A stretch of 30,110 nt of DNA from contig KZ538025.1 in assembly GCA_000934665.2 (NCBI GenBank), positions 124,001 to 154,110 on the forward strand, in the 5' to 3' direction. The position numbers were made by a program, and so were the translations under genes. Position 1 is the first letter of the stretch; each line of letters starts with the position of its first letter. The notes under the pieces were generated by a model that was given only the letters and a program-made list of their open reading frames with translations, was not told the DNA's origin and did not search any database. Shown here piece by piece: positions 1-29,631 of the stretch. The stretch is from Catajapyx aquilonaris. Its lineage: Eukaryota.

Positions 1-2790
1 ACGGTGGGTACGAATTGGAAATGCATATATCTTCGAGTTATTACTAGTTGTCAGACCTTTGGGGAGGTATGAAAAATTGCTTCTTATTCTCTCTCAAGAG
101 GAAATGCGTATATATCAATCATGTGGACTGTTGGGGATAGGTCATAATTAATTGCACGTTTTGAGACTTTTCCGGATTTGGAATGGATGATTTATTATGG
201 GAAGTATATGCTTCTCACACGACGTAATGTGTTTTTAACAATTTAAATCGGTGGTGATTCCAAGCATATTTCCAGGATGATGCTTCACAATATAGGTTTT
301 ACAGGTTTAACTTGTAACGAAATATAGCGATCTTAATTACCATGATATGCACTTGTGTACGAAGCTTTATTGCAAGGTGATGTCAAATACAACAATGTCA
401 CAGTCTTCCTGACTTGCAGCAGGTATACAATATCAAATCTCATATGTTGTGACCGAGTCTGCAAAACCACACGTAGGTTGATGCTATTATTATACTGTAT
501 TTAGTAAATGAATACCCGGATAATAATATGACTCACTATTATTATCTCTCCTTCTCCACCACTAAAATGAAATTGTGGGCATTCAAACACAATAATTAGA
601 GAAGTTCTTTTTATCCAACCTACACACCAGACTCGAAGATGTAACTACCCGACCTTTTCCCAGCAATAATGGAACTGCGAAGCGCCTGTGACTTCATTTC
701 CCACGCTTATATTTCGTCTGAGACTTCTCGAATAGTATATTTTTGGGAGGCCTGACGGAGGGAAACGAAAGCAGTCATTTTCGTCACACGCAATAGGAAC
801 CAAAAGGTTACCCACAATACGACTTCTCCTTCCGATTTCCCTTCTAACCTACCGTGTATACTGATTCCGTTTAATTCAAAACTCTTACTCTCAAAATACA
901 TTTATTACAGTGTATCTCTTATAATGAAATGACCGCTTTGGCGTTACGTTGCGTTTCAGAAGAGCAACCGTTGGTGATTGCGTTTGCGTCGCCAACTGCA
1001 ATTTCCGTGGTATAGGTTAGTTATTAGGGTGGGGCATTTCAAGGAGGGGGACCTAGAAAGATTAAAAAAAAAACACCGTTCTACTTTCAAAAAACCTAAA
1101 TGTTGCGTTTGCCTCTTTCACCCTCCTACCCTATCCTCCTCCCAAAGAAGTGGCACTGATTCCGCTTGATAAAAGTAATAATTACATCATGAGTTACTCT
1201 AAACCAATTACGTCCTCACTTTTCCTCCCCTGCATGGCTCTGATACTTTTTTCCTCCATCCCGCCTTTTTGGTACACGAAACATGAGAAACTAAGAATAT
1301 CCGGTAGGACATGAGATATTACAAGCCTGAACTAATAGATACCGTGGTAACATGTAATTAGTATTGAAAATATGAATAATAAATTAAAATTTTGTCCGAT
1401 TCAGATTTACGTCATTTTTACAAACAAGTGACAATAACAATGCTGTAATGAGAAACAAATATTATTTTATGGAAATATTGCGCGTCAATTGGTCCATGTG
1501 TCTAGAAATGATTCAATTCATATGCGACTACTGGGCACATATGCTATATGGTAAGACCAGAAATCTCGAGTTACAGGGTCCAATCAAAATACATTTCCCT
1601 GTTTTGACGCCCATAAAAACTTTCTGCAGCTGCAGAAGAAGGGAAACGAAGGAGAACGAGAACTAATTAGCGCTTGGAAGCCGATCCTCCTCAGCTTCTC
1701 CTCTTACAAGAAACACAAGAGGCGTCTTTTGGACCTCTTCCGGGCTAATCCCAGTAAGTCGGCTGCCATTCCTAACGAGCCGAAGGATGGCCACTATTTC
1801 AAGGGAAACAGTTTTGGTGGGGGAGACCACATCTAACTTACCATGCCGACCTGTCAGCTAAAGGAACACTGCTGGAACACATTCGACCCCGGAACGTGTC
1901 GGCCCCTAACAACATTGGCCATATGCCTACCGCACTTCTGGTCAAAAATTCCTATGATTACTTTTAAAAAGTGTGCGAGCAATAAACAAGGGAAGAGATT
2001 CCTGGCTAGACCATTTTTATGGGAAGATTCCCATAGAGCTCCCCATCTAGAGACCACGGGACGATTGATAATGGCTGATAATTATTGGTTTGATTGGATG
2101 AGGATTCCCTCCATGTCGAGGAACGCTATGGTTTTCTAGACAGAAAATTATATAGGAGTGCTCGCATTGGGCCTTAGGGCTTGCGGGATTTTTTTTCTTC
2201 CTTTCCTTTCCCCCCCACCCTTGCTATTTGGTAAACGCCCACAGTATACACTGAGTAGGTGTTTTCAAAGCTCATGTCAGATTGCTCGAACTTATGACTT
2301 TCTTTGAGAACTTCCGAATTAGCTGAATTGCCGCGAATATTGCGTAAATGTGGAGCAAAATTAGATTTTATCTGAACATTTCATATTTTTGTGCCACTTT
2401 AGTAGATTTCCACCATTCGCGTGTGACCATGAACGTAGCATGATAGTAGGGTCATGGGTCACTGATGTTAGAGTCATCTCATGTGATAAACATCGCCAAG
2501 TTTGTGTCGGGTCAACTTGAAGAACGATGGAAGTTTTGACACTGTGATGAGACAGGGGCCAAGGGAAAATGTATGGTTCCGTTCGACAAGGAGCCTAACG
2601 TAAGAAAGCCTCCCATCCTGCACTGTTGGAGCCTGTAATTAGCGGGGAAAAACGGGCGGGAAACCTACCTGCCGATTTCACTCAAGCTGCTATGGATTCC
2701 TTTTCTGGGAATTTTTTGGGAAATATGTTAGCAAAAGAATTTTGTTCACACCGCTTAATTTTATTTTCTCAAAACTGCAATTTTGTAGTT

Positions 2791-5498
2791 CTAATCAGAA
2801 GAATCTGATTCGGATAGTTCGACAGGGTTCGCCTCCTCTTCATCATCAAGAGGAAATGCGATTTCGGCCAGTAAGTCGATTCTTTTGTCAATCAGAGAAT
2901 TGATGTTGTGAAGTAGATGCCTGCAAAGAGGTTCGCCAACGTCCCTGCAACCGCCGATTTGGGACATCACAAGAAGCGTCCAGGATGACATGGGCCAGAT
3001 TGGTGCTGTGGTACCATTCAGGAAGGCTCTTCCGTTGGTGTTCCACTCACCTCCGACAATGGTGACAAAGCCGGCCACTTCGTCCATCACGGTCCTCGGG
3101 GTACTGAGGCGCCCTCGGCATACAGGGCAGTGCTGCTGCACCAGCATGGCATTCTGGAGGCAGTCTTCGTGGAAGAAGTGGTGGCACGGAGTCATCTTAG
3201 CCTCGATCATATCATCCTGGCAGATTGCACACACGTCGTTGTGTGCGGCCAAATCTCCCGCAGACGCGTTGGGGAACATGTCATGGACTCGACGTTGCAT
3301 CTGAAACAAGCATCTGGATATAGTATTTGTCACCAATAGGCTACAAGTGGAGATACCTCGCGTTTGCTACGAAGGTTGATGGCTGTAGCGGTGGCATCGA
3401 TGTCGTTGCATAGCATCAGCCCATATGCAAATATGTGTGCGGATGTTTCCACCCATGGTAGGACAAAGAAGCCCCATCCGACCAGAGCTCCAGCGGACAG
3501 CAAACCCTTCAGCATTACCTTGGCCGTGATCATGTTGATGGCTTTTGTTCTGGCCCATTCCGGTGAGAGCAGTGCTAGTAGCATTGCCACCCAGGAAATT
3601 CTGGACAGGACTAGGCTGCCATGTTCGTACCCTGCGAGCCAAGGGATGATGCTGAGGACCAGAGCACCTCCGTATACCCAACTGGGGCAATTGGGTTCTG
3701 TTCGGTTCATCAAAATCAGGTCACTGCGCCACGTCAGTTCGCGGAGAACCACGTGCATAGCGCTGTGTAGTAATGCGATTGCGATGACCCGTTTCCCCAG
3801 TAGGGGCATGGCCATCATGCCGGTTGACACCACAGAGGCCACAAACTGAGAAGGAATATCCATAAACCAACACTGATGGCTGTCATATACATATCGGAAC
3901 TCACTTGGATAGCCAGAGCATCGCCAATACTAGTGGTTCTTCCTGATGGTAATATTGCTTCGAGACTATTGTACAGCAATTGGCTGGCGATAGCAAGGAA
4001 GGAAGCTGTTCCCAAGAGAGAGATGTAGCCGTCAGTAGCCGCGTCTGTCAATGATTGGAAGCTGAACTCTGGCTGATGCAAGGCCTCGTTCAGAACCATT
4101 GCCATCTTTCCTGTCCAGATGATGCGGACCAGTGGCATAAACCAGAAGGATAGTAATATATTGCCGGCCAGAAACACAATCGGGGACAGCACCAGTAGTG
4201 GAAACATCACCGCACTGACCCACCATTCCGCAAGAAGTGCCCATGCTGAAAGTCAGTATACGCTATTCTAAAGTTTGGTTCACACAGGAGTCATTGTTTT
4301 TGACTCCCGTGTGAACTACCTCACCTAGGAAAACTGTGTGTGCGAATGTTAACCCTCGACGTTGAACATGCTTGGCCGTCTCAAACACGTACATTCCGGT
4401 TCGAATAAGTCGGCGTCCAATCACTTGCCACACTATCCCTATGAAAGGCATCACAAGTGCCAATCTAGGTGTGGTGTCCAGGATGTGCTGCTCAATACCC
4501 ATCTTGGACAAAACCGTAGGTATGAAGAAGGTGGATACCAGCATAAGCTTTTGGGGGAGTTCTTTCGGGCCTTCCAGGGCGGTGAAGATGAAAGAGAGCC
4601 CCAACTGCAAATTGCCAATGTGAAATTATGCACACTTTGAGAGATGACATTAAGGTCCTACCTGATAGAGTGCGTTGTACATTAGTGGCCCATTTCCTTT
4701 AGGCATGAATAGCTGAATGGTGGGTGCTTTCATAGCCATGGCGCTCTTGCTGAGTAAGCTGCTGGTGGACGCACCAACTGACAGAGATTCGAGCATGTGG
4801 ACATTGTTGCAGAACGAGCATGACAGAGCCACTGAGGCTAAAATGTGTCTCAAGATTTCTCTCACTATTTTTCGCACTTGGTGTAGTGCCCTGACGCCTA
4901 CTCTAGTCCTCCTTATGCCTTTCCTTATCAAGAACGTGACAGCGATTATACCGATTGCAGGAACTGAAAAAGACAATGGGAGTCAGGTATTGTAGCTTAC
5001 TAATTGTGGCTAGAAACTCACGGATGTAATAATTCCAGTCTTGCGAGATGACATTGACGTAGTGGTAAATTGTTCGAAAGATTGCTCCACTGCAGGCTAA
5101 CATATTATCCAGTTGGTCATTTGTTTGGCACATTGGTCTGTAGACTTGAGGAATTTCTTGAAACATATGTGAGAATTTAGGAATTGTAGCTTCGCAAATA
5201 CATCGGGCTGTCCTCTCTTTTTGGCTACTTTCCGAGTCGTCCAGGAAGGACACGCCATCCCAATACCAGCTGATGTCCATACTCTGAATTGCATTTTAGC
5301 AATGCATAAGCATACCAGAGTGGTGCAAACGCCAAATTATGTTATTAGTTAAAAATGTAAGGTACAGGATAATAATGAGAAGATTACCGTCAGGACTCTT
5401 TTCCACGGGTCGTGTGGCAGGCCGGACAGAAGCTTGATGGCCTGGATGACCATGACGCAGAGAAGAGTCGCTTGGAGCCACAGCTCTATCATGGCCAT
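2791..5498 (-). CDS. Multi-pass membrane RING-H2 protein, divergent TRC8/RNF139/RNF145-like E3 ligase family, paralog A (~764 aa, 7 exons)
   Basis: Hand-spliced exons 5498-5388, 5283-5022, 4963-4662, 4604-4325, 4245-3905, 3845-3357, 3300-2791 (2295 nt, all GT-AG, open frame). Many hydrophobic segments. RING-H2 CAIC-x11-CHHFFHEDC-x10-CPVC at 3118-3231, preceded by FPNASAGDLAAHNDV, which resembles the segment leading into the TRC8/RNF145 RING (ATxEQL..xNDxCAIC). AATAAA at 2760-2765. Confidence 0.85.
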
Positions 5499-5873
5499 TT
5501 TTGTATTTTATAATTTTTCTACACTAATGATTTTGGAATTAAGCGGTGGGTGATGACGAATAATTTTGAATTGCGACCAAATGAGCCTCTAAATAACAAC
5601 GTGCAACCATGGATTTCCAACAATGCCACATACCACATCTGAATCATTGTTGTTTTACTATGAACATTGAACAAAACCGGTCGAATAAAATGGCCGAACA
5701 GCAGGGACATTATTGGACTTGATGAGTGTGCTTCTTCAAAAAGCAAAAACCGAATTAGTTGTCAAGTTTTTGAGCGAGTTGTAGTATCTGGTTCTAGCCT
5801 AGGTTCTAGTAGGGAGGGACCATCTGCCGGGGGGCAAACTAATTTGGTGGGTTATAAATGAGCGCCAGAGCGG

Positions 5874-5889
5874 TGGCGCCATCTGGTAG
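5874..5889. promoter_or_regulatory. CTCF-like motif between paralogs B and A
   Basis: TGGCGCCATCTGGTAG; the reverse complement CTACCAGATGGCGC differs at one position from the CTCF core CCACCAGATGGCGC. A weaker similar word, GACCATCTGCCGG, is at 5818-5830. Motif match only. Confidence 0.4.
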
Positions 5890-5925
5890 TTGGGGCGATG
5901 CACCACGTGAACCTGTGCTCAGAAG

Positions 5926-6090
5926 TAGGGCTGTGCGATATTTCGATACATCGACCGTGCATCGACTGTCGATACGATATTTTCCTAATATCGAAGTTGC
6001 GACTGATTATATCTGACGCTTGGCATGTTCGATGTATCGAATATCGCGATTTTTCGATGTCGGTTTTCGATATTTTTTGATGTCGGCTCG
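5926..6090. mobile_element. Truncated hAT-like MITE end
   Basis: Starts TAGGGCTGTGCGATA, a typical hAT TAGGG(A/C)TG terminus, followed by dense ATCGA/TCGAT subterminal repeats. I did not find a matching opposite terminus. Confidence 0.5.
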
Positions 6091-6399
6091 TTTATTTAAA
6101 TGGTAATCCTAAGTTTTTATATTCTGACAATTTTCTCAAAATGAGCTTGCTGTGTTTTTGACTGTACCAGCCTGTCTGAAAAATTACACATTTAGATTTC
6201 TTCCAAGAATCATCCTTTCAATCAATGAGATACGTTTGTGTAAATGTACTTTTTTCAGCATTGAAAGCGGTATGTGTAATTCTAATATAAGAAAATTTGA
6301 GTAGTAGGCTACTGGTATACCTTTTTTACCTATTGTTATTAGGAAACACCTGCACCAAAAGTTATAGGTTTCATCAAAACCAATAATGTGGATGGAATT

Positions 6400-6407
6400 T
6401 TTATTCA
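6400..6407 (-). terminator. Poly(A) signal overlapping the paralog B stop codon
   Basis: Minus strand reads GAG TGA ATAAA, so AATAAA shares its first A with the TGA stop. Confidence 0.5.
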
Positions 6408-9400
6408 CTCATCACCAGTCAGTGCATCATAAGTATCACCAGTGAGTGCATCATAAGTATCACCATTGAGTGCATCATAAGTATCACCATCGAGTGCATC
6501 ATAAGTATCACCAGTGAGTGCATCATAAGTATCACCAGTGAGTGCATCATAAGTATCACCATTGAGTGCATCATAAGTACATTCAGAGTGTAGCATTTCT
6601 GAAGTAAGGTTGGATGCATTATAGTCTGCACTATGTTCCCCACTGCCACCTTCATCCTGGTTTTCATGCACCTCGTCATTGAATTCATTGCATTCAACCA
6701 ACTTGTCAGGAAAGAAGACCATGTTCATCATGTGGATCCTCTTGTCCACAATGGCAGTTATCTCCTTAAGCATGGTCAAATTGGGAGGATCACCAACGTT
6801 TCCACATCTTCCAGCATGTCTCAGGAGTATCACAGACCAGGCTGACATTGCCCATACTGGAGTAATCACATGTCTCAAGAACTTTGTTCCATTAGGATGC
6901 CATTCTCCACCAACATGTGTCCACACATTCAATGCCCCACTGTACAGTTGCTTCTGATGAGTTGGGTGCAATGGCTGGTGACAGATGGGGCACTTGTAAT
7001 GCTGCATCAAGACAATCGTAAGGCATTCTTGATGAAAGATATGCTGACATGGTGCCACTTTTACACCTACAATGGCCAGTCTATGGCAGTGAGAGCATGA
7101 TAGGTTGCTGGTGGAGAGTTGAAGATTAGTGACATCAGGATATTGACTTGCACGTTGTTTTGCCTGTAGAAATAACACAAATAAGGTTTATAGTGCACAT
7201 TAATGGTAGTTCATACTCATTTATGGGTCAGTATTTTGAATTAGTATGGTTGCGTTGCCTGGAAAAACTACAATAGACATACCTTTCCATTGAGGTAAGT
7301 GTAAATGCAAATTGAAAGGGCATCAATATCAAAGCAGAGCAGGAGTATAGATGTGAAGAAATCCATTGCTGAATTTGGCAAGTCAAGTGCATAGGATATG
7401 ATGCAATTTGCACTTAGCAGGACTCGAAACATTCCACCCACAATGATGAAGGTGGGTGTCTTGGCCTTATCACGTGACATAGCAAGTGCCACGGTTGCCA
7501 TAGTTATCCAGGACACCACCTTCGCAGACATGCTGAAACTGTTCATGTCTTGTCCCATAAAGATGTTGGCAAGAGCAAGTATCTTTCGGAGGATACCCAA
7601 TTCCACATGGAGTAGGGATGACATGTCAATTCTCCATTCCAAATCATGCCAGAAGAGAGACAGGGAGCCTCTTATGATGGCACTTGTAACCATACGTCTC
7701 TTGGATAGGGGAAGGCTTGTTATATTGGTGCATATGGAGAGAGCTAGCATCTGTAAGAAGTGAAAGTTTGTAACTGCTATACAAGATTGTGGGTCCTTTT
7801 AGTTATAGAGTGTTATAGATCAATGCTGCTATTTTATGTAGCTTGTTGTGCCCTGATCCAGGTGCCCTATTCTACTGAAACTGCTATATTCAGCCACCTG
7901 GGAGTAATGGGGCACATGGATCGGGGCACAACAATCTACACAAAAATAACTGCTTTGGGGAATATCAGTTATAACTAAAACGAACCATGAACTTGGAACA
8001 CCCTGTATGTTTTATACACTAGGATAGTCTAAAAGGCCAGTAATGTCTTTGAAATAGCTGACATTAGTGTGGTATATATACCTTCTGAACTCTGTATGGT
8101 AACTATATGTTGTCAAAATGTGAGCTCCTCCATAGATAAGAACTGTAGCTTACCTGGATAGCTATTGCAGTGCCTGGTAGTGGGCCCAATGGGAAAGTAA
8201 TAGCTATTACATATTTCCATATGGTAAATAATGCTTTGTAGATGAAACATGCTGTAGCCCAGAGAGTAATGTAGCTTGCTGTAATTTGGTCACCCAGCAG
8301 CATCCAGCTGAATCCATCTTTCCAAATTGTATGCTGGCTGAGAGCTAACATCATCTTGTACAAGAAGAGAGTGCACCCAAAGAAGTTCGCCATTGAGGAA
8401 AGGAGCATGTTTGCAACAGGACTGATCAGCAGTAGTGAGAGTAGAGTTGGAGACAGTATGACACTTATCATCAACTCTCCGGCAATGCAGCATACTGGAA
8501 GTAGATGAAATGCTAGGAATGTTTTACTGATCCTGTGCTACAAATTAGAGGATGCATACACAAGACTGTGGCTTGGATCAAGTGAATCCCATGATGCTGC
8601 ATGTGTCTGATGACACACCATAAGTAGGTACAAAGGCGGAAGAGGCGACGTGCCACTAAATGCCAGAGAAGCCATGTGAAGGGTATCCCCATAACTACTC
8701 TAGGGACTGCTAAAATGAATCCAGGCTGGAAATTGAGTGGGTACAGCAAGAGTGGACCTAGAAATGCAAATCCAAGAATGATCTTGTATTTCATCCTTCT
8801 CGGACCCACCATCCGTGTGAAAATGGACCAAAGTACAATCTGGAGGAATTAAACAATAAGTGTCATTTTGATAAGAACTACATTATTTTTTACCTGGTAC
8901 AGGAATTTGGTGGTAATTGAAGTCTCCAGAAGCAAGGGAATGGATTTATATTGGCAGGATTCCAACAACGTGTTTTTTTCAAGCATTGTGTAGTGATTAC
9001 TGCAGAAAGATGCTGCCATAGTAATTGATGCCACTGTGTATCGTATAATCTCTTCTGCCAGTGCTTTAGCAACATCCAGAAAATTATCCATGCTTTCATC
9101 ATTCCTTAAGTTGCCTTTAATTATTGCCAGCAAAATCAATGGTAAAGCCAGACCCACTGGAACGAATTTCTGCCATTAATTTACGAGTGGTCTAAGGTTA
9201 GCTTACACTGAATATAAATCTAGTAATGTCAATTTAACTAATTAAATTTACAAATAGATACATACCAATGTATAGGTGCCAGTGAGTATACAGCAAGGAG
9301 GCAGCATCCCAAGTAATCCGAAAGACCATCCCAGATGCTGTCATAAGATTGTGTAGGGAATCATTTCTGAGGCACATGGGTGAATATTGACCGGGCATGT

Positions 9401-9695
9401 GATCAAAAAATGTATATGTCATGGGCAAAGGAGCTTCACATATGCATTGAGCTATTATTTCATTTTCACTTGTTTTTTTCTTGGGCATAAAATTTCTCTT
9501 GTCCCAAGTAGAATCCAAGCTCTGAAAATAATCTAGTTAGTTTGAAAAACTCTTATGAAACTTTCTATCATGTGTGGTACTGACCATGAAACTCCTTTTC
9601 CACAATTCTTCATAGACCGTGAGTGTTATTATGATTGTCTGCTGAATTGTAATGCATAAAATGAAGAAGGTGAGCCACTTTTCAGTCAGAGACAT
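6405..9695 (-). CDS. Multi-pass membrane RING-H2 protein, paralog B (~825 aa, 7 exons), with C-terminal TYDALxGD repeats
   Basis: Exons 9695-9585, 9521-9266, 9156-8894, 8839-8560, 8494-8154, 7750-7283, 7163-6405 (2478 nt, in frame). Exons 1, 4 and 5 (111, 280, 341 nt) are the same length as in A. RING CSHC-x12-CQHIFHQEC-x10-CPIC at 6981-7097. Confidence 0.85.
6411..6578 (-). repeat. Coding 24-bp tandem repeat, 7 units, encoding TYDAL(N/T/D)GD
   Basis: Plus-strand unit ATCACCA(G/T)(T/C)(G/C)AGTGCATCATAAGT x7, located one codon before the stop codon of paralog B. Confidence 0.97.
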
Positions 9696-9983
9696 TCTGT
9701 ATAAATATATGTGCACTAAAACTCTCAATTTCAAGTAAATTTTAGTACAACTGCTTGTTGCTCAGTAACGACAAGGATGGTGTGAAACAACAATAGGAAT
9801 TTGCACATTGTCCAGGTGGGATATCTTTATTGCAACTTTAGAGCATTCAGTTGTTTTTTTTGTCATCTTTTCTGAAGTCTCTGAGGCCTGACTGTTTCAC
9901 TACTATTTTGGTAAATCCAAATAGGCTGCATGTGAGAATGTAAAGGTGTAAATATGCTTCCAAAATTTAAATGTCCCTCTAGT

Positions 9984-12900
9984 TTATAAATTCAATTGCA
10001 CAGAAATATTAACAAAAGGAAGATGAGCTATCCGGTCATCAATAAGTTTGGCGACGTCTCTCCAAACTAATTCGTCATGTTCATCACAAGGTTCACCACA
10101 TCTGCCAGCATGTCTCAAAATCACTAATGACCACATTGACATAGTCCATGCTAAGTCACCCGTACTGCGAAGAAAGTTGGGAATGGACAAGTCCCAATCT
10201 CCCCCCAAGAAGGGGAGTAGTGTTGCAGCTACTTTGTCCAAGAGTGTGCTTTCTGAAGAAAAGGAGCTCCGACACAAGGGGCATTGGTGGCGCAGAGTCA
10301 CAGCCAATTGCAGGCATTCTTCATGAAACAAGTGATTACAGGGAGTCACCTTAGCTTCTGTCATGGCTCCTCTACAAACAGCACATATGTCATTGTAGGT
10401 GACCAACTGTTCTGTTGTTGCATCAGGATACAAATGGATTAGATGCAGGACCTGCAAAGTAACCATGTTGTGATTGGGATTCTTTTATTAAATAAAGAGC
10501 CTCACCTCAAAGTTTTTTCCCAACTTGAGTGCTCTGGCAGCCGCATCTACGTCCAAGCAGAGGAGCACACCAGTATAAAACCATTCCTCAAGAGAATTGA
10601 TATGAGTGATTGTGACTACATGCAATATGAGTCCTGCAACCCCTGATGTTAATCTTAGTTTTGCCTTAGATACTATCATCTGTTGAGCCTTAGGGGTGCT
10701 GGAAAACATGGCCAAAACAAAAGCAATCGAAGAGTAACCCTTCAACAGCTTTCGATAGGGGCTACAAATTTTCAAGAACATGCTGGAGGGAAGAGTGATA
10801 GCCAGAGCACCACAGGCTATTTGGGAAGATTGAGCTTTCCTAAAATGGTTCAAGACAGCCATATCAGCTCGCCACTCAAGCTCAAGAATCAGAAATTCCA
10901 GGCACTGCACACTGATTCTCTTCCACATGTAGTCCTTCTCAATGGTAGTCTGACCCATCAGCCCATAACAGATTGATGACACAATCATCTGAAAGCATAG
11001 TAGAGTGTAGAGAATAGCAGGAGCAGAATATTACATGTGCTTTTCTCGTGCTCAAATACTCACATGCATTCCAATGACATAGCCCATAGTGCAAGATCTT
11101 CCAGAGTGAACCACCACTTCCACCAACAAAAGTATGCTGCAGAAGATCACGGCAACAATGTACACAGCCCCCAACCATGACATATATCTGCTGGTGGCAT
11201 TCTCTGTCATTCGGGTCCAAATTCCATCATGTTCACTTGTGCTGCTTTGGTCAGGCATTGTGTAAAATGCTATGCTAATACATAGCGATGAAATGACTTT
11301 GCCAACCCAAGGCTTTGCTAGAATTTCCTCAATAAATTTGATTGTTGGCCAAAGCAGTAGTAGTGGCAGAAACACCAGATTGTATAACCAATCCATGAAC
11401 ATTGCCCAGCCTTAGGGAGGGAAAATGTTTTTGTACAAAGTGTGTGATTTTTTGTGTAATTCTGACTTTAAGGTCACATAACTGCCACTTTCAAGCCACT
11501 TTGGCAGTTGGGTCATAACAAATGTAAGTGGAGGGGTGAGAATGTTGACGTGCCAACCATAATGATATATAGTGTAGACAATGACAAACATTCAATTCCT
11601 CTAGCTGCTCTAGTAATCTATGCCATTATATGTAGATTGGTGCCTGTATATTTCTCAGTCCTAAATTTTAGACTGGTTTTGGCGAGATGAATTCAGTGGC
11701 AGTCAGATGACCTATTAGTTAGAAATACCCTGAATTAATAGGGTTACTTACATAACATTATGGCGGTAAAGAATGGTATGCCACTATTTTTAATATGTCG
11801 TCCAGCCAGTAACATGTACAGCCATAACCGGAAAATGCGACGTCCAATGAAGCGCCACAGAATCCATAAAGCCAGGATTGTTGAAGAAACATACGTGGAT
11901 TTCAGAAGCAATTGGCTACTTTGGACATGGACCTGGAGAAGTATTGGAAAGAAGAAGCTCAAAGAGGCCACAGTTCTTGTGTGAGGATGCCAGGGCCCCA
12001 TAGTGAAGATGAACACTACACACAGAAGAAACTGCAAGTGAAAGTTTTAGTCAGTTTTGAAGCTAAAGAAATGGTACCCTTCTTACCTGGTACACAGCAG
12101 CTTGAAAAACAGCTAACATTCCATTGGATTCAGTTGGAACTGGACACTGACACATTCCCTGCTGCTTTCTTTTTATCATATTGCAATTATTGTAAAATGA
12201 TGCTAGGAGCACAAAAGATGCCAACAGAAGTAGAGTAATTTCATGTCCTAATTTTGCCATGTTATGCCTAACAAGCTTCCATCCTGGTGTATTTTTGTGC
12301 AAACTCATTTTTAAAAACAGCAGAAAATTCAATATCAAAATCAGGGGTACTGTAAATGAAAGTTGTCATCATTTCTTATGCGACACTTATTGTTAGTGGA
12401 GTGGAATGAGGCAAGTGCGGTTTTCGTCACCTACATTTACAAGCCTCCCAGTTCTCATTTAAAGTCAAGATCCTTTGCCAGGGGGAGCTTCTGAGCCAAG
12501 TGTAGAATTTAGAGATGATGTAAAAAGAGTAGGGTAGTGGGAGAATTTCACAAGAGCAGTCACTGATTCCTCCTTGGACCCATCTTGCATCGATGCAAGA
12601 GTGTCTGTCCCAATGCCCATACAAATTTTGGTTCTGAATAATCTGAAATGCAATGAGTAAGTACGTGATAACTTGCTTAAATGGTTAATAATCAATTAAT
12701 CAAGCAGTAAGAATGAAAATCTGTTATATGTCATGTACAAATTAAATTTAGGTGATGGTGAATTCACGTAAGATATATTCTAGATATAAAATTTATCAAA
12801 ACTTTTCCTTTGTCACAATTTTATTTTATACTTAGGAAAGATATACTTGTTTAATTATTATTTAATTGACAATACTGACTCAAGTGAGGCAGACCTACTA

Positions 12901-13183
12901 TTGCTAGGATGTACTGTAGTTTTAATGCCATGAGAGTTACTGGCCTTTTCCTAGAAAGAAACCTATTCTTCAATTCAGCCAGCATGTCCATTGATGAAAT
13001 TTGTATCAATTCTACAGTAATGGCAACAGTTTGTCCAGTGTGTTCTAAATATTGATGATTGAATATACTTACCAATAGCGTTTTCTCCCATAATCCTCTT
13101 GCATTTAAAAACATGGCATCATAAGAATACCAGGCTATGCTCCATGTGAGGAATAACTGAATCCATAATAGTATTATGGACAT
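9984..13183 (-). CDS. Multi-pass membrane RING-H2 protein, paralog C (~716 aa, 7 exons)
   Basis: Exons 13183-13073, 12633-12435 (in-frame alternative boundaries 12642 and 12441), 12349-12087, 12031-11752, 11410-11064, 10988-10506, 10451-9984 (2151 nt). RING CAVC-x11-CNHLFHEEC-x10-CPLC at 10272-10385, preceded by YPDATTEQLVTYNDI. Confidence 0.8.
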
Positions 13184-13187
13184 GGTT

Positions 13188-13199
13188 TTTATTCACTGA
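13188..13199 (-). promoter_or_regulatory. Adjacent Inr-like TCAGT and AATAAA poly(A) signal in the 81-bp D/C gap
   Basis: Minus strand reads ATCAGTGAATAAAAACC-ATG: TCAGT at 13199-13195, AATAAA at 13193-13188, paralog C ATG at 13183. Confidence 0.45.
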
Positions 13200-13264
13200 T
13201 TTACATGCAAAAATTTTGTAATCCAAATATCACATTTGCTGTTGCTAGGCAAACTTTGTTTGTG

Positions 13265-16070
13265 CTAATTAGTGTCATCAACCATCAAATCATCATCATA
13301 ACCCATGAGTGGTGAGAAAGAATCCAATATGTCATTTCTGGTTTCCATCTCGGCACAGAGCTGTTCAAAGAGGCTACTATCTTTGGGATCTCCCACTTCC
13401 CCACAGTCTCCAACACACTCCAAGAACATAACTGACCACTTTGAAAACACCCAAAAGGGCTCCAGAATGAAGGCTAAAAAATCACGCCCCTCCATTTCCC
13501 ATTCACCAGATCCACAAAAGATGGACAGTGCCTGAGCCACGTCGCTCGTTATGGATCTGTAATTGTTTCCAAGGAGACCCCTGCACATTGGGCAGTGCGG
13601 ATAGATTGACATTGACTCTTCTAGGCAGATTTCATGGAAGTAGTGTCGACAGGGGGTCACCCGAGCCTCAGTCATGACTTCCCTGCACACTGGACACACA
13701 TCATCTTGGTTAATCAGCTCTGAGCTTGTGGCACGTGGAAATGTGGCCGTCACTGCTGCTATTTCCTGATCAGTCACAAAATAATGCATGAGATTGTAAT
13801 ATGTAGAAGTAGTCAATCATCACTGATGGAAATGCGTTGGTATTGGAACACACATCAGCACATGACATTATTATGGCAGCAGGCTACAACATGTGACTTG
13901 AAGAATTTACAGTGAAGTGATGCAATTTTACGACTCACCTCAGTACTTATACTTGCTATGTTGAGAGCTGCTAAGGCAGCATCCATGTCCCAGCAGTAGA
14001 AGATCCCAGTGACAAGTAGGCTTGAAGAGGGCTGTTGAGATAAACCTGTTGTTATCAACATTTCCCAGGCCATGCTTCGAGCACCAAGAACACCTCTGAG
14101 ATGGGTCTTGAATACCAGAAAATAGTAGATGGCAATAGAAATCGAAGAAGATCTGATTGAGGTCAGCCAGAAAGCAAGCCAATATAAGGGTGTGAGGAAG
14201 ACATCGTTTAGAGACGGAATTCCTATTAAAAGTCCAGGGAGTACGCCAAGAAGAATTGCAATGGCTGACACCAAAGGAGGACATACTGCTCCGTAGTGTT
14301 TCAAGACAGCCAGATCAGCACGCCATTCCAACTCACGGGCCAGGAGTAGAAGAGAGAACTTCAGAATGGCCTGATTTGCTTCTGAAGTCTGATCATAGCT
14401 TAATGACAATGTGCTGCCAATAGCCACCCAGGCCACCATCTGCAAATGCAAAGTCAAATAAATATACTGACCCTGCAGAAGGTTCAGGCACATGAGCAAG
14501 TTGTACCAACCTGAATTCCAATGGGTAATCCTGCTTTATTAGAGCGTCCAGATGGCAATGTGTCTTCTAGTATAGGAAAGACAAAGCCACAGGTAGTGAC
14601 TAGGAAGCAGATGGTAGCCCATATTCCAAGGTATCCATCAGTGACTCCACTCACCACAAGCTGCCAACTGAACTTATCTCCATGAAGGCTCATGACAATT
14701 GACTTGATCATATTCCAACAGAAGACATTAACTCCTATCCAGGTGGTGGTTGGACTCAGTAGAAATTCACCAGCCAATATTACCATGGGTAGGAGAGGTA
14801 TCAGCCTCAGGAACATGAGGTTAAGCCACATTTCGCCCAGGACAAAGACATCTGAAGGTAGTTACAAATGATAATGTATAGATGCTGCGATGAAGCAATT
14901 AAATTACAGTGTTTGTTCTTACATATGGCCAAGATTCGTTGTGGCTGTGATCCGATGTTCCTGAGGTGCTGGTTGACACTTGCAGTGTAGATGAAGAGAC
15001 GGCAGAATCGGCGTCCCACCGAGTGCCACAGAAGGCAAGCCATAGGGAACAGAAGGGCTAGGCGGCATGTGGTTGCGATTTGTTTGGAATTCACAGAACT
15101 ACCTAATAGGCCCACCATACCCATGGGTAAGAGGAATCCCATTGCAGCTATGGACGCATTCTTCAGTTTGCCTGAGCATACCAACACAGTGAAGCTCAAC
15201 CACAGTGTCACCTGCCAGAATAAATACCATCATTGTGATTCAGAAGAGCAATAAGACATTTGAATATTTGTCAGTGTCCACGTCACCTGGTAGATGGAAT
15301 TGAATGCTACTGGGGAGAGATTGCTGGGAATCCAGCGAGCCAATGGTGAGATGTACTTTCGCGGAGGAGAAAGTATTTCTTCACTGCTTGTAAGATAGTA
15401 ATAATTACAGCAGAAGGACTCAGCTAGCGTAATGGCAGCCATTATATATCTTGTCAACTCTATAGCCACCTTCAGAGAATTCTGCACGATCAAGCCTCCA
15501 TTCAGACCTCCATTCTTCAGGAAACTCTTGATTATCTCCAAGGTAGGATAAGCAATTACCAAGTAGCCTGTCCAGAATTAGCCGCAATGGTTACTTGATA
15601 CTTTCGAACATATTTGTTACATACCAAGACAGACTTTCCAATTTCCATACAGGAAGTTGCCGGATTCAAGGAAGAATCTGTAAGCCGTTCCTGCTGCCAC
15701 CAGAAATACATGTATAGGGTCCCCCTGAAGGCAAAAGGATGGGGACGAGTTGTCTGGATTTTCACTAGCTTGAAATAGAAGGTCAAGTTGAGGGACAGGA
15801 GCTTCGCACACACATTTATGGGACTTGTCTTCATCTGGATGCTCTGTATTTCCAAAAATCCTGTTTTGAATCCAACTGTTACTCTCTTCCATGTCCGGCA
15901 ACTGCAAATGATAATGTCAGTTTGTGACACTGAGGTCATTGGAGGTAACTGTAACTGACCTGGACGGCTTTTTTCCACATGTCCATTGGAAATTCTTCTA
16001 CTATCTGAAATGCCTTTCTGATGATGATGGAATGAATAAGGGTTTTGAGCCATAACTCAGTTATTGCCAT
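13265..16070 (-). CDS. Multi-pass membrane RING-H2 protein, paralog D (~766 aa, 7 exons)
   Basis: Exons 16070-15960, 15901-15625, 15567-15287, 15211-14923, 14851-14511, 14439-13939, 13765-13265 (2301 nt). Exon 1 (MAITELWLKTLIHS...MWKKAVQ, 37 codons) matches A exon 1 (MAMIELWLQATLL...PWKRVLT). RING CPVC-x11-CRHYFHEIC-x10-CPMC at 13583-13696. Confidence 0.85.
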
Positions 16071-16236
16071 TGAAAATTTATAAAAACTAACAAGCCAAAA
16101 ATATTAATTTTTCGCCACACATTTGTGGATCTGGTTTTGCTGTTGCCTAGTAATGAGTGTTAATGATAAGGAGTAAACAAAGAGTTCTGCTATAATATAC
16201 CTATATCCTTTCCTATTGGCCAGGCTGAGGCAACCC

Positions 16237-16369
16237 CCATCTTTACTCATGTAATATTGTATTCTGACAGTTGTCTAGCAACTGGGACAACAACCAATAA
16301 TGACAACACTGTGACAACAATTAGTCCAATAATGTCAGGTGTCCGCCATCTTTACTCAGGTAATATTGT
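16237..16369. repeat. 24-bp direct repeat pair in the E/D intergenic region
   Basis: CCATCTTTACTCATGTAATATTGT (16237-16260) and CCATCTTTACTCAGGTAATATTGT (16346-16369), one mismatch. Confidence 0.8.
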
Positions 16370-16564
16370 TGCCTGCCTCACATTTCACCCTGAGTGCTCT
16401 CTCTAGGTATATTATATATTATAGCAGAACTCTTTGGGAGTAAAAGGTGGCAAAATCAATTATGCTATTTATTGTCCCAAAATGCAATTACGAATCACAC
16501 CATTGGTTATCCTTTGAGACTGAGCTTTTTTTACTTATTTCTTCTGTTCTTCACACTCATCCTT

Positions 16565-19216
16565 TCAAATCATGTTAGCAGCCATGGCTAGCAGGTTCAG
16601 TATTTGGCTCCTGAATTCCACTTTGACACATAATTTTCCCAAGATCTCACTGTCCAGAGGATCATCCATTTCTCTGCAGTCACACCCGTACCTCAATAAC
16701 ATGCCAGACCATGATGACAGCATCCCAAATGTGCCACTAATGAAGTTCAGAAAGTTGCGTCCGTCCACCTTAATATCTATGATTTCGAAGGACCCAGTGC
16801 ACTGAGCCAGGACACTTGCTACTGTCCGTCTGTTCAAGGATTCCCTGCACACAGGGCATATAGGTCGCTCTGCTACGGCTGCCCGTAAGCAGTCCTCATG
16901 GAAACAGTGGTGGCATGGAGTTACCCTGGCAGAAGTCATGGTGTCTCTGCACACTGCACACACATCATTTGTGTTCCTTAGCTCATTTCTAGTGGCTCTT
17001 CGGCACATGGCCCATGCCTGGCGTGATGCTCGCTTCTAAGAGGATGTATGCATTAGACATGACATTACATAAAGGCAGCGTTTTTTTTACTGGCTGAACT
17101 ACTGACCTTGCAATATAGGTGGGCTAATCTGACAACGATGAAGGAATAATCGATTTCCCAACAATAGACAATAAGTCTGAATAAAACACTGATGTCATGA
17201 ATCCACCTTGGAACCATGACTTCTGTGGCCAAGTACCCAAATGCAAGAATGCCTCTTAGTCCTGTCTTAATCAAAATGATGTTACGGGTAACATGGAGGA
17301 TCCGCAAGTGACTGCAGCACAAAGTCATCAGAAGAGAAATGATATGCAAGACATTGAAGTAGGAATCAAAGTAATCCGTACTTCCCATGAACAGTGCAGG
17401 GAAAATCCCGACAACAATGATTGCAACCGATATCCTCTGGGAACATCCTTCTCTCAAGTGAATGAGGATGGCCTGGTCAGCTCGACAAACCAATTCTCGT
17501 GACAAAACTAGAAGGGCTAGCTGGAGGATGGCCTGATGTACCCTCTTTCGATGGTCGAGATCCAATCTCACAGTACTGGCAAGGATAAACCATGCCCACA
17601 TCTGAAATATAATGTGCAACTAATAAGGGTGGAGTGGACAGGGAAACACTATTGGTACCTGGATGGCAAGTGGCACTGCCACTTTGGTGGACCGCCCAGA
17701 AGCCATAAATAATTCCAGGATTTGGAAAAAGAAATGGCACACTCCCAGCATGAAGCATATGGAAGCCCACATGGCAATACTTCCATTTGTTGCTGCATCT
17801 ATCACTGTCTGCCAAGTGAGATCATTGCCACCTACGCTGCTGAGGATGGCTGCAGCCATCTTCCAGCAGAAGACACCAAATCCCATCATGTTGGCATAAG
17901 GGTTGAGGAGGAATTCTCCAGCCAGTAATACCGCAGGAAGGAGGAGTACCATTTGCAGGAATACCATATTGAAACAGATTTCTGCCAGCACGAAGCAATC
18001 TAAAGATATTCGTAAACTGCACTGTATGTTGGACACACTTCCAACCAGTGAAATGGGCAAAACACTTACATAGGATAATCACTTTCTTGCCAATTTCCCC
18101 ACCACATCGCAGGTCCTGGTTGATGGCTTCAAAGTATCTGAGGAATCGGCAAATACGACGTCCAATTAGGTGCCACAGGTAACCTGCAATGGGAATCAGA
18201 AGAGCCAGACGGCAGGCAACCGCAATTGTTCCATGACTCAACTTCAGAGGTTTCAAGCACATTGGAAACAAAAAGGCCGTCAGGATCATCAACTTGCTGC
18301 GACCGCTGACGCACACTAGGGAAGTGAAGAGAAATCCTAGAATTACCTGTGAGAGAGGAAGTGATCAAGAATCTTGCATGAAGTGTATTCCTTCAGTGAA
18401 CTATGCCTCTCACCTGAAGTAATGAGCAGAATATAATAGGACAAGACGTGTTCAAAATCCACGTGTCCAAGAGAAAAAGTTGTGGTAACTTCCTGATGAC
18501 TGACGACTGAGTGTCTTGTTTATGCGTCAGGTAGTAGTAATTGCTGCAGAACGATACTACCAATGCACTGGAAGACAGTGTGTACCTAGCGAGCTCTCTA
18601 ATTATCTTGGAGTAATCAGATATTACTCTCATGTTTACTTTTCTGCTTTTGAGGTACCAACTGACCAGTATTTTCACAGGTACTGCAGATACCAAGCTGA
18701 TGATTGCCATAGCTGTAAATGCTAGAAGTTAATGCCCATTTAACTTATTTTAAATGTGAATACACACCCAGATCGATCCACCGAATCCAACTTGTGAGCA
18801 GTGGAGTGAAGAGTTTGTAGTAAAACCTCATGACCATTGCCGAAACGACCAGAAATACGTGAATTGGATCACCATTCAGGCATGTTGATACTGTACCCGA
18901 AGTGTTCCATGGCCACTCAAGTCGAGATGGAGGGGCTTCACAGATACACCGGCATGGGCTGTTGCGGTTCATGTCACTTGGATTCTCAGGGATACTTTGT
19001 TCTACGTCTCTATCCGTGTTGTTATGATCATCCTGGAATACATGATTTGATAGGCTGCAACTAGTCTATACTGGCACAATGGGCCTCCATATGTATACTT
19101 ACACCAGGTGCAAAACCTCCCTGCCACATGCCTGCTGGAAACTCCAACATTAATATAGCCACATCGCAAATGAGGAACAGTGCAATAGAGTGCAGCCATA
19201 TTGAAACAGCTGCCAT
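16565..19216 (-). CDS. Multi-pass membrane RING-H2 protein, paralog E (~753 aa, 7 exons)
   Basis: Exons 19216-19103, 19032-18768, 18712-18414, 18346-18070, 17999-17659, 17601-17107, 17035-16565 (2262 nt). RING CAVC-x11-CHHCFHEDC-x10-CPVC at 16847-16960. Most similar to D (CL.GDPIHVFLV, SFC.NYYYL, SGRS.K...P..IQ). AATAAA at 16468-16473. Confidence 0.85.
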
Positions 19217-21618: not shown

Positions 21619-21624
21619 TTTATT
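21619..21624 (-). terminator. Candidate PI4KB poly(A) signal (a second candidate is at 21221-21226)
   Basis: Minus-strand AATAAA about 635 nt downstream of the PI4KB stop codon. Confidence 0.4.
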
Positions 21625-22258
21625 TCATAAAATACAAAGAACTTGTAGCTATACATCACATGTTGCAACCCCACTTGCTCGCTCTCACTCACACAAACAC
21701 TTTCACACCTAGGCTCCAACCACAGGGAGCCATATCTTCAATGAAGACTCTTCACTTGCTCACACACACGAAGGAAGAGATGAAAGAGGGCCAGTGAGAA
21801 TGGAAGGACACAGGATGGGGAAGGACCAGGGGTGCAACTGACTCTGCAGTTGGGGGCACATCAAATGAATATTGCAATAGTCTCAAATTGCTATTATAAT
21901 AATCAGAGCGGACAAATCTTGGCACAAGTAATATCATGGTCACTTCAGTTCCAGTCTTTACGGACCACATCACAAGACAAGGACTTGGAAGGTTGAAAGG
22001 GGGGCACAGGGAATGAAGTAAACAAAAACAAAACAAAATTTATCTTGAGTTCTCCTCCACACAAGAAGACCAGTCTCGATGGTGTGTATCACAGAATCCA
22101 GCCTCCAGTTAGTCCCACCAAAAAACCCACCCAAACAATGTTCAACAATCTTGCTTAAGAGAGCAAGGTGGGGATGAAGGGTGGAAGAGGCCAGCATGAG
22201 GCTGCGGTTATGACAGGGATGAGGGAGGGAGGGGCGGGGGAGGGAGGAGGGTTGTCTC

Positions 22259-29412
<7,154 letters not shown>

Positions 29413-29416
29413 TGAC

Positions 29417-29631
29417 CTGGTAGACAACATGTCAGTTAGCGCACCGAACATTTCTCAAAACAAAATCACCCGCAATGCCTCAAGGTCACGCGGCTGAACA
29501 CGTGCCAAACGCATGTAGGCCTCACTTAGCGCAAATGAACCCCGCACTTCGCACTCATCCAGCTGTGATCACACTGTCCGCAAAATGTACACCTCCCAGC
29601 TAGAAAACAGCTTGACGAGTGCCGCACTCAC
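29417..29631 (-). other. Probable 5'-UTR intron of PI4KB, with a non-coding exon from 29632 upward
   Basis: Minus-strand donor AAG|GTGAGT at 29632/29631. Branch-like CTAAC and acceptor CTACCAG|GTCA lie 4 nt before the ATG. The spliced upstream exon has an in-frame TAA (29670-29672), so it does not extend the CDS. Confidence 0.65.

Follow-up and report, generated by a model that had tools for sequence, protein, structure and literature searches.

The five genes described here are, with a probability which we put at about 70%, old and intact tandem paralogues belonging to a divergent and apparently lineage-restricted subfamily of TRC8 (RNF139)/RNF145-type proteins. They are co-oriented on the minus strand of a 30,110-nucleotide stretch of Catajapyx aquilonaris DNA (contig KZ538025.1, positions 124,001–154,110; referred to here as the window), and occupy positions 2791–19216, where 2791 is the final base of the copy 1 stop codon and 19216 the A of the copy 5 ATG. 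The architecture we propose for them has four parts: a family-specific N-terminal helix with a Cys-containing segment (exons 1–2), a multi-pass membrane domain that would be a remote homologue of TRC8_N (exons 3–6), a putatively cytosolic RING-H2 finger of the HRD1/gp78/TRC8 clan, and a family-specific post-RING block of ~80 residues followed by a variable acidic tail (exon 7).

The gene models rebuilt from the sequence have seven exons each, and every copy has the intron phases 0,1,0,1,0,0; GT...AG ends are present in 30/30 introns, of which 25 are 54–119 nt long. An earlier note on this DNA had described five co-oriented seven-exon genes with these phases, and the rebuilt models bear this out, agreeing with its outer coordinates and matching exactly the sizes it gave for exon 1 (111/111/111/111/114), exon 4 (280/280/280/289/277) and exon 5 (341/341/347/341/341). 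It had also held the copies to be intact, without stop or frameshift, and indeed each spliced coding sequence (~2.2–2.5 kb) is a multiple of three and open to a single terminal stop, with no internal stops in any copy (the proteins are 719–825 aa long). Five open reading frames of this length, all spliced alike, exclude chance as their origin. It should be noted that the exon 6 acceptor of copy 4 may be at 14439 or 14466, as either is in frame, and that the spacer between copies 4 and 3 contains a single AATAAA ending 4 nt ahead of the copy 3 ATG. No sixth copy or remnant was found in the flanks, where tblastn (E ≤ 1e-3) returned nothing beyond the five spans except one RING cross-match overhanging the copy 5 span by 51 nt, and a search of 365 six-frame flank pieces with the family HMM gave a best E of 0.32.

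Table 1. Features of the five-gene array, in window positions; exon sizes are in nucleotides, with the last exon counted with its stop codon.
Feature	Positions	Strand	Basis or remark
Copy 1 gene, 764 aa	2791..5498	-	Splice-site search, spliced translation, intron ends
Copy 1 exons	5498-5388, 5283-5022, 4963-4662, 4604-4325, 4245-3905, 3845-3357, 3300-2791 (stop 2793-2791)	-	Sizes 111/262/302/280/341/489/510
Copy 2 gene, 825 aa	6405..9695	-	Splice-site search, spliced translation, intron ends
Copy 2 exons	9695-9585, 9521-9266, 9156-8894, 8839-8560, 8494-8154, 7750-7283, 7163-6405	-	Sizes 111/256/263/280/341/468/759
Copy 3 gene, 719 aa	9984..13183	-	Splice-site search, spliced translation, intron ends
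Copy 3 exons	13183-13073, 12642-12435, 12349-12087, 12031-11752, 11410-11064, 10988-10506, 10451-9984	-	Sizes 111/208/263/280/347/483/468
Copy 4 gene, 766 aa	13265..16070	-	Splice-site search, spliced translation, intron ends
Copy 4 exons	16070-15960, 15901-15625, 15567-15287, 15211-14923, 14851-14511, 14439-13939, 13765-13265	-	Sizes 111/277/281/289/341/501/501
Copy 5 gene, 753 aa	16565..19216	-	Splice-site search, spliced translation, intron ends
Copy 5 exons	19216-19103, 19032-18768, 18712-18414, 18346-18070, 17999-17659, 17601-17107, 17035-16565	-	Sizes 114/265/299/277/341/495/471
Spacer, 81 nt, copy 4 stop to copy 3 ATG	13184..13264	-
N-terminal extension, copy 1 (exons 1-2)	5022..5498	-	Alignment, hydropathy
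Exon 4, copy 1, clearest TRC8_N similarity, ends in W-x3-G-RR-x2-R	4325..4604	-	Segment-wise hhalign
Exon 4, copies 2-5	8560-8839, 11752-12031, 14923-15211, 18070-18346	-	Equivalents of copy 1 exon 4
RING-H2, copy 1 (C-x2-C-x11-C-x-H-x2-H-x2-C-x10-C-x2-C)	3118..3231	-	Pfam zf-RING_2; alignment A2
RING-H2, copy 2	6981..7097	-	Alignment A2
RING-H2, copy 3	10272..10385	-	Alignment A2
RING-H2, copy 4	13583..13696	-	Alignment A2
RING-H2, copy 5	16847..16960	-	Alignment A2
Post-RING block, copy 1, ~80 aa	2881..3117	-	Conserved in alignment A2
Post-RING blocks, copies 2-5	6738-6980, 10032-10271, 13337-13582, 16610-16846	-	Equivalents of copy 1 block
In-frame tandem repeat, 24 nt x 7, copy 2	6411..6579	-	Tandem Repeats Finder, 95% matches

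Hydropathy analysis predicts multi-pass proteins with 6–14 hydrophobic segments. Pfam TRC8_N was found in none of the 20 delimited exons (exons 3–6, scanned exon by exon; gathering score 27 bits), and its sole trace (12 bits, E 0.092, profile positions 115–198) was on the stop-to-stop open reading frame around exon 4 of copy 1. A home-made HMM built from 24 TRC8_N-bearing proteins and run on the spliced proteins scored the membrane parts of copies 1–5 at 24.1, -1.8, 14.1, 5.1 and 11.2 bits, the best of these being below the 27-bit Pfam cut-off and copy 2 scoring nothing; the matches are colinear (HMM ~56–339 with residues ~150–460), and four of the five copies fall independently on the same interval. 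When the RING-less alignment of the five copies (a query of five sequences only, Neff 2.9) was compared with RING-less TRC8 proteins by hhalign, the probability was 92.2% (E 6e-7) and the score 61.7 over 299 colinear columns, against 16.7 for the reversed control, 15.7–27.3 for block shuffles (0/8 reaching 61.7) and 16.0 for the HRD1-like membrane domain. Most of this signal comes from exon 4 (probability 60%, E 8.5e-5, query 2–61 with template 122–180); exons 3, 5 and 6 are insignificant singly, and the weak segment matches are in the expected colinear order. Clade by clade, the signal was strongest with the clade containing named 'protein TRC8 homolog' entries (probability 89.9%) and only 2.9% with the RNF145 clade, though 283 columns were colinear there, and Mytilus RNF145-like proteins gave none. 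On the strength of these profile comparisons, which exceed all 10 controls, the membrane region is a remote and colinear homologue of TRC8_N. The YISLLG... segment, in which the earlier note recognised an echo of the TRC8 membrane domain, aligns on the TRC8 consensus '...iavlGmtsivsyv' in the HMM alignment.

The nearest relatives of the C-terminal part were sought by searching 1.84 billion proteins with an exon 7 profile. The matches were RING proteins, and the best named of the 150 listed were RNF145 and RNF145-like proteins; local HMMs placed a TRC8-type membrane domain in 49/150 and an HRD1-type in 33/150 of those listed. Thirty were picked, 27 by length (>~530 aa) and three (P0064, P0083 and P0127) as the match extended past the RING, and Pfam found TRC8_N in 25 and the synoviolin/gp78 N-domain in three. 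In the PDB, gp78/AMFR at 63 bits and synoviolin at 62 matched best by sequence, and the next entry fell to 47 bits. Against the 24-protein HMM the RING flanks of copies 1–5 scored 83.7, 29.2, 75.2, 73.1 and 60.3 bits, and the flank signature P-x-A-[TS]-x3-L-x3-[ND]-[DL]-x-C...[KR]-[VM]-[TA]-P-C-x-H-x-F-H is present; because this is also found in HRD1 and gp78, it is diagnostic of the clan rather than of TRC8 specifically. Judged by sequence, finger and flank are of the HRD1/gp78/TRC8/RNF145 type. The TRC8/RNF145-like assignment made earlier was thus right in kind, given the flank scores and the 92.2% hhalign probability, but with Pfam at 0/20 and HMM scores of at most 24.1 bits these are not ordinary members of the family.

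These results also bear on whether an HRD1-clan RING might instead be carried by an unrelated polytopic membrane domain, the TRC8_N likeness being a by-product of hydrophobic helices and the array an independent membrane RING lineage. The empty Pfam scan, the insignificance of exons 3, 5 and 6, the want of significant signal with the RNF145 clade or the Mytilus proteins, and a flank motif common to HRD1 and gp78 would all be expected in that case. We consider it unlikely, since 61.7 over 299 colinear columns stands against 27.3 or less in 10 composition-matched or unrelated-membrane controls, four copies independently select one HMM interval, the weak segment matches all keep the expected order, and the domain order and RING position are as in TRC8/RNF145.

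The finger itself was detected by Pfam zf-RING_2 (E 2.5e-9, copy 1), and its eight zinc ligands (C24, C27, C39, H41, H44, C47, C58 and C61 in alignment A2; C3H2C3) and CP-x-C proline are invariant across the copies. It is the best-conserved segment, with 40% mean identity in paralogues that are otherwise ~25% identical, which argues for kept RING function. We take the CLxxW tryptophan and the hydrophobic position of C-x-[IV]-C to be E2 contacts, as in established RING–E2 structures. The tryptophan is absent in all five copies (replaced by A, V, A, S and A), and copy 2 has His (C-S-H-C) where relatives have Ile or Val, so that ligase activity is not assured. Proteins that are TRC8-like by descent might have lost this activity and become RING pseudo-enzymes, which could serve as decoys or membrane adaptors or regulate the canonical ligase. 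The copy 2 His could suggest this, as could the loss of a Trp found in 122 of the 150 RING matches listed as nearest. The remaining 28 of those listed likewise do without this Trp, however, and the zinc ligands, proline and finger have been preserved amid such divergence, making this explanation quite improbable.

On either side of the shared domains, the paralogues carry sequence of their own. Exon 1 encodes a hydrophobic helix and exon 2 ~87 aa with a C-x-C-E motif; both exons are present in all five copies, and the extension has no counterpart in TRC8 proteins and no Pfam family in any copy. The post-RING block (mean pairwise identity 29%) follows the pattern GGEW..NG..FL...W.MS.W...G.C..[GD][DE]P...D.R, with F93, L94, S105, W107, C118 and R140 invariant in alignment A2. 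It has no Pfam family in any copy, and none of the 150 HMMER matches listed covers it. The variable acidic tail beyond it forms the C-terminal end, and in copy 2 the tandem repeat translates to (DTYDAL[TND]G)x7.

Pairwise protein identity among the copies is 21.1–37.2%. Short shared motifs that had been proposed all exist, but as written (W..GRR..R, ELxWRxD and CxDxD) were slightly too strict: W-x3-[GA]-RR-x2-R is in all five copies, while [ED]-L-x-[WC]-R-x-D has its W and C-x-[DE]-x-D its D in four of five. Synonymous divergence (dS) among the copies is saturated and exceeds dN, which is 0.59–1.0. In the phylogenetic tree the copies form one clade (SH-aLRT 100), with copies 4 and 5 as sisters (SH-aLRT 100), on a stem of 3.31. 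This clade makes up a trichotomy together with those of RNF145 and the TRC8 homologues, a placement for which the program warns of long-branch joins. Path lengths within the array are 1.9–3.9 substitutions per site, compared with ~1.3 separating the TRC8 homologues of a scorpion and a brachiopod, and no orthologue was found in the protein database searches, including that with the exon 7 profile (best 150 matches listed). The long paths and missing orthologue are consistent with a lineage-specific array that is diverging fast, and the TRC8-like subfamily is real and divergent, and probably fast-evolving. Every copy may also be functional, and the parallel that the earlier note drew with germline or host–pathogen gene families is a possible one. 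That these are decaying or never-expressed duplicates, and the models an artefact of reading open frames, is highly improbable: the very short spacers (81 nt between copies 4 and 3) might hint at it, but five complete frames of 719–825 codons without a stop, 30/30 canonical splice sites in conserved phases, dN below saturated dS, and zinc ligands and family motifs kept despite saturated synonymous sites all speak against it, as neutral decay over such a time span would have wrecked the frames.

Were the array proteins to work as their relatives do, they would sit in the ER membrane like TRC8 and RNF145. There the membrane domain would recognise lipids or clients embedded in the membrane, while the RING would bring in a ubiquitin-charged E2, leading to ubiquitination and then degradation of the client. 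We infer ER location, ligase activity and a role in ERAD because a review (PMC12765900) reports ER localisation, E3 activity, an ERAD role and sterol/lipid responsiveness for mammalian TRC8/RNF145. Five strongly diversified membrane domains could then provide five client or ligand specificities. Since the usual E2-contact Trp is missing in all copies, the conserved post-RING block may, more speculatively, help to hold E2 or a cofactor. Taken together, this would be an undescribed, fast-evolving branch of ER-membrane ligases in which a new post-RING domain has taken over from the RING Trp in recruiting E2 or a cofactor, with five sensors each serving a different client; we offer this fuller scenario as a doubtful one. 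If true, the diversified-sensor pattern would fit lipid sensing particular to the lineage, or an arms race against membrane proteins of viruses or symbionts. We note as part of the same scenario that the genes are as close as 81 nt and possibly co-transcribed.

Among known systems, HRD1/synoviolin and gp78/AMFR have the nearest solved RINGs (62–63 bits) and are fellow members of the clan of RING-H2 ligases in the ER membrane, but their membrane domain is unlike that of the array (hhalign with three HRD1/gp78-like proteins: score 16.0, probability 0.1%). Pfam found no CUE, G2BR or synoviolin N-domain (TPR_SYVN1_N) in the array exons, and this together with the hhalign score rules against membership of the HRD1/synoviolin–gp78 group. 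RNF145, to which the review PMC12765900 ascribes sterol- and lipid-sensing features, has the same architecture and RING type, but its membrane-domain similarity is insignificant (hhalign 2.9%). Closest are TRC8/RNF139 and the invertebrate 'protein TRC8 homolog' (PF13705 plus RING-H2), which likewise have a polytopic membrane domain and then a C-terminal RING-H2; TRC8 shares the RING flank signature, and the membrane region of the array is colinear with TRC8_N. In contrast to TRC8, the array proteins fall below the Pfam TRC8_N threshold (exon by exon with Pfam, and with the home-made HMM on the spliced proteins), have ~100 extra N-terminal residues (the helix and C-x-C-E segment) and a conserved ~80-residue post-RING block with no TRC8 counterpart, lack the CLxxW tryptophan, and form a separate long-branch clade. 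The TRC8/RNF139–RNF145 family is usually low-copy, whereas the array has five copies in tandem, and is an offshoot of that family which has so far gone unrecognised.

The five co-oriented genes are a real feature of this DNA. A fivefold series of open segments is seen on the minus strand at ~2.8-19.2 kb of the window in both the ORF listing and a stop-free scan, and we modelled the genes from such stop-free segments joined by frame-keeping GT...AG pairs, with short introns and a maximal open frame preferred. This splice-pair search returned one consistent model per copy, with seven exons in all five and intron phases of 0,1,0,1,0,0 throughout; every one of the 30 introns is GT-AG, and 25 measure 54-119 nt. 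The spliced coding sequences are 2160-2478 nt with one terminal stop apiece and encode proteins of 719-825 residues, with the N-terminal extension in exons 1-2, the membrane domain in exons 3-6, and a RING-H2 finger, post-RING block and tail in exon 7. The five-gene array described in the earlier note was thereby confirmed, with the rebuilt exon sizes equal to the figures given there. Across the five copies exon 1 (M-x5-W...W; 111 or 114 nt) can be recognised as homologous, and any two of the proteins share only 21-37% identity, copies 4 and 5 being the closest pair. The flanks, 2.8 kb on the lower side of the array and 10.9 kb on the upper, contain no sixth copy or fragment.

Features of the array and its surroundings (positions within the window)
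Feature	Position	Strand	Description
Sequence below the array	1-2790		2.8 kb; short ORFs only
Array, copies 1-5	2791-19216	minus	Copy 1 at the lowest coordinates, copy 5 at the highest
Minisatellite in copy 2	6411-6579	minus	In frame; 24 nt x 7, 95% matches
Spacer, copy 4 stop to copy 3 ATG	13184-13264	minus	81 nt
3'-splice-site-like sequence	19217-19245	minus	Strong; pyrimidine run and CAG, ending 9 nt before the copy 5 ATG
Sequence between the array and PI4KB	19217-22261		~3 kb; short ORFs only
PI4KB gene (phosphatidylinositol 4-kinase beta)	22262-29454	minus	Pfam PI3_PI4_kinase and PI4KB-PIK1_PIK on exons; upstream of the array, same strand
GC-rich segment	29001-30000		GC 0.59 (0.36-0.53 elsewhere in the window); adjoins the 5' exon of PI4KB

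Hydropathy analysis predicts many membrane segments in roughly the first 590 residues and a soluble C-terminal part beyond them, where exon 7 holds the RING-H2 finger (Pfam zf-RING_2, E 2.5e-9), the best conserved part of the proteins at 40% mean identity. Searched against 1.84 billion representative proteins, a profile built from exon 7 of all five copies produced 21,782 matches at E<=1e-3, and the best 150 of these (at least 67.9 bits), which we inspected, all cover the RING and ~20 preceding residues only. Thirty of the 150 were chosen for Pfam analysis, 27 by length (>~530 aa) and three because the match extended past the RING (P0064, P0083 and P0127; P-numbers are handles for database proteins). 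TRC8_N (PF13705), the membrane domain of TRC8 (RNF139), was found in 25 of the chosen proteins and the synoviolin/gp78 N-domain in three, and local HMMs run on all 150 listed matches recognised a TRC8-type membrane domain in 49 and an HRD1-type domain in 33. Named matches include 'protein TRC8 homolog' from scorpions and Lingula, and RNF145 from coelacanth and Mytilus. The solved structures closest to the RING in sequence are gp78 (AMFR) and synoviolin (HRD1) at 62-63 bits, with the next match at 47 bits. The TRC8_N and HRD1-type relatives, together with these nearest structures, place the RING in the HRD1/gp78/TRC8/RNF145 clan of ER ligases.

The membrane domain is more distant. Pfam recognised TRC8_N in none of the 20 single exons (exons 3-6 of the five copies), and a stop-to-stop ORF enclosing the fourth exon of copy 1 matched it at just 12 bits; we therefore built an HMM from 24 TRC8_N-bearing matches and ran this on the spliced array proteins. 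Copies 1, 3, 5 and 4 scored 24.1, 14.1, 11.2 and 5.1 bits in their membrane parts, over the same model interval (~56-339), and the membrane part of copy 2 gave no score. Profile-profile comparison with the RING removed matched the array to TRC8_N with 92.2% probability (E 6e-7, score 61.7) over 299 colinear columns, compared with control scores of 16.7 for the reversed query, 15.7-27.3 for eight 25-column block shuffles, and 16.0 for the HRD1/gp78-like membrane domain. Most of the signal comes from exon 4 (60% probability), and exons 3, 5 and 6 have weak best matches to TRC8_N in the expected colinear order; in the same segment-wise comparison, exons 1-2 and the post-RING part found no counterpart in TRC8 proteins. 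By clade, the TRC8-homolog proteins matched at 89.9% and the RNF145 clade weakly at 2.9%, and the Mytilus RNF145-like proteins gave no signal with the array membrane domain. Two motifs, W-x3-[GA]-RR-x2-R and [ED]-L-x-[WC]-R-x-D, are common to the membrane part of the array. The predicted structure of exon 6 (mean pLDDT 72, pTM 0.65, six helices) had no match at E<=0.001 in the PDB using Foldseek, and a wide VIA-align search returned only generic helical bundles (BRIL fusions and cytochrome c'/b562) at Z<=10.2, where the noise level for helical bundles is ~13.

An HRD1-clan RING carried on an unrelated membrane domain would fit the lack of Pfam matches, and would fit poorly with a colinear match scoring well above every control, and we consider it unlikely. 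We conclude instead that the array membrane domain is probably a remote TRC8_N homologue lying below the curated detection threshold of the family. The TRC8/RNF145 assignment proposed in the earlier note was right at the level of the superfamily.

The RING itself differs from its relatives at two positions which we take, from RING-E2 structures, to be E2 contacts. Of the 150 nearest listed RINGs, 122 have the tryptophan of the CLxxW motif; the array copies instead have A, V, A, S and A there, and copy 2 has His where 149 of the 150 listed relatives have Ile or Val. Such changes might be expected had the genes descended from TRC8 and lost ligase activity, a reading that overlaps with our own; none of the eight zinc ligands varies among the copies, and we regard such a loss as distinctly improbable. 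That the copies are non-functional duplicates is scarcely credible for five uninterrupted frames with identical intron phases.

Two further modules are particular to the family, and neither was assigned to a Pfam family in any of the five copies. The N-terminal extension of ~100 residues combines a hydrophobic helix (exon 1) with a segment bearing a C-x-C-E motif (exon 2). The post-RING block of ~80 residues (GGEW..NG..FL...W.MS.W...G.C...) is second only to the RING in conservation (29% mean identity) and was unmatched in the 150 listed protein matches, metagenome contigs and the ESM Atlas; it is modelled with pLDDT <50 in an AlphaFold2 prediction of exon 7 (mean pLDDT 56). Copy 2 alone also has an acidic tail, (DTYDAL[TND]G)x7, encoded by a minisatellite which looks like a recent expansion within an otherwise ancient gene.

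The earlier note describes the TRC8/RNF145 family as generally low-copy and well conserved. Searches for orthologues of the array found nothing at E<=1e-3 for exon 6 of copy 1 amongst the longer proteins of a 5.8-billion-protein database, in which the exon-7 profile matched just two Mytilus RNF145 or RNF145-like proteins, by the RING only. Amongst the 1.84 billion representatives none of the best 150 matches passes profile position 103 of 163, so that a weaker orthologue could be hidden; the 46 loci in JGI metagenome contigs all match query residues 2-86 only, and the ESM Atlas had no usable match for exon 6. Full-text literature searching found general papers only, and no account of a tandem TRC8/RNF145-like expansion.

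The array duplications are old in sequence terms. Pairwise pS is 0.71-0.79 and dN 0.59-1.0, and as synonymous sites are saturated no reliable dN/dS can be given. We constructed a quick maximum-likelihood tree (598 columns) from the array proteins together with 25 TRC8_N proteins and three HRD1/gp78-like outgroups, leaving out the partial proteins P0026 and P0127. This placed the five copies in one clade (SH-aLRT 100) on a stem of 3.31, made copy 4 the sister of copy 5 (100), and did not resolve the order among the array, TRC8-homolog and RNF145 clades. Path lengths between array copies are 1.86-3.92, where the summed printed branches are ~1.3 from scorpion to Lingula TRC8 homologues and ~3.6 from TRC8 to RNF145. 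Had the array evolved at the canonical TRC8 rate, it would be older than the protostome phyla; given that no orthologue was found elsewhere, it reads more simply as a family that is restricted to its lineage and evolves more quickly than canonical TRC8, allowing for long-branch and alignment noise and for inspection of the best 150 matches only. It should be noted that six other TRC8_N proteins (the Mytilus RNF145-like P0042, P0151 and P0152, plus P0049, P0111 and P0059) score only 27-120 bits against 240-570 typically and fall into long-branch groups of their own in the tree; other invertebrates thus have divergent offshoots of the ligase family too, none of which shows specific similarity to the array.

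The neighbouring PI4KB gene has an exon with 68-70% identity to PI4KB of millipede, scorpion and spiders and nothing closer among the matches listed, which indicates an invertebrate source, probably an arthropod or a near relative of that group, whose lineage has no closely related annotated genome in the database searched. The array genes have GC and GC3 values (0.43-0.51 and 0.45-0.58) that overlap the ranges of four of the five measured PI4KB segments (0.47-0.55 and 0.51-0.59), with the 5'-most segment higher, and the GC-rich segment is possibly the PI4KB promoter region. Of the short ORFs flanking the array, the five submitted to Pfam had no match; these flanking sequences show no array-family similarity, and neither Rfam nor a tRNA scan gave a match anywhere in the window.

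The sole AATAAA in the shortest spacer ends 4 nt ahead of the copy 3 ATG, and with only 81 nt available the transcription units must overlap, or there is read-through or co-transcription; the remaining spacers (494, 288 and 906 nt) have one AATAAA apiece. The splice-like site before copy 5 is suggestive of an untranslated exon further upstream or of a trans-splice acceptor, and copies 1-4 have weaker AG sites 1-20 nt ahead of their ATGs, near chance expectation. Alignment of the 160 nt before each ATG revealed no shared motif, and a sigma-70 promoter scan, irrelevant to a eukaryote, gave background levels.

The review PMC12765900 describes TRC8 and RNF145 as multi-pass ER ligases of sterol- and lipid-linked ERAD, with roles in sterol-regulated HMG-CoA reductase degradation, tail-anchored protein quality control and lipid-dependent ADIPOR2 degradation, and reports that cytomegalovirus US2 hijacks TRC8 for MHC-I degradation. 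By homology, each array copy would be an ER-membrane E3 in which the membrane domain selects membrane clients or senses lipids and the RING brings in an E2, and the copies may differ in specificity, given how strongly their membrane domains have diversified. If the five-member diversified tandem family stands, this ligase scaffold can radiate as receptor and immune gene families do, and the array would offer five naturally occurring versions of a single membrane domain for studying the determinants of client or lipid recognition. From its sequence, the array is a new, divergent and expanded form of a known kind of enzyme, the TRC8/RNF145-type ligase, from which it differs in the family-specific modules at the N-terminus and after the RING and in a predicted change to the E2-contact surface.
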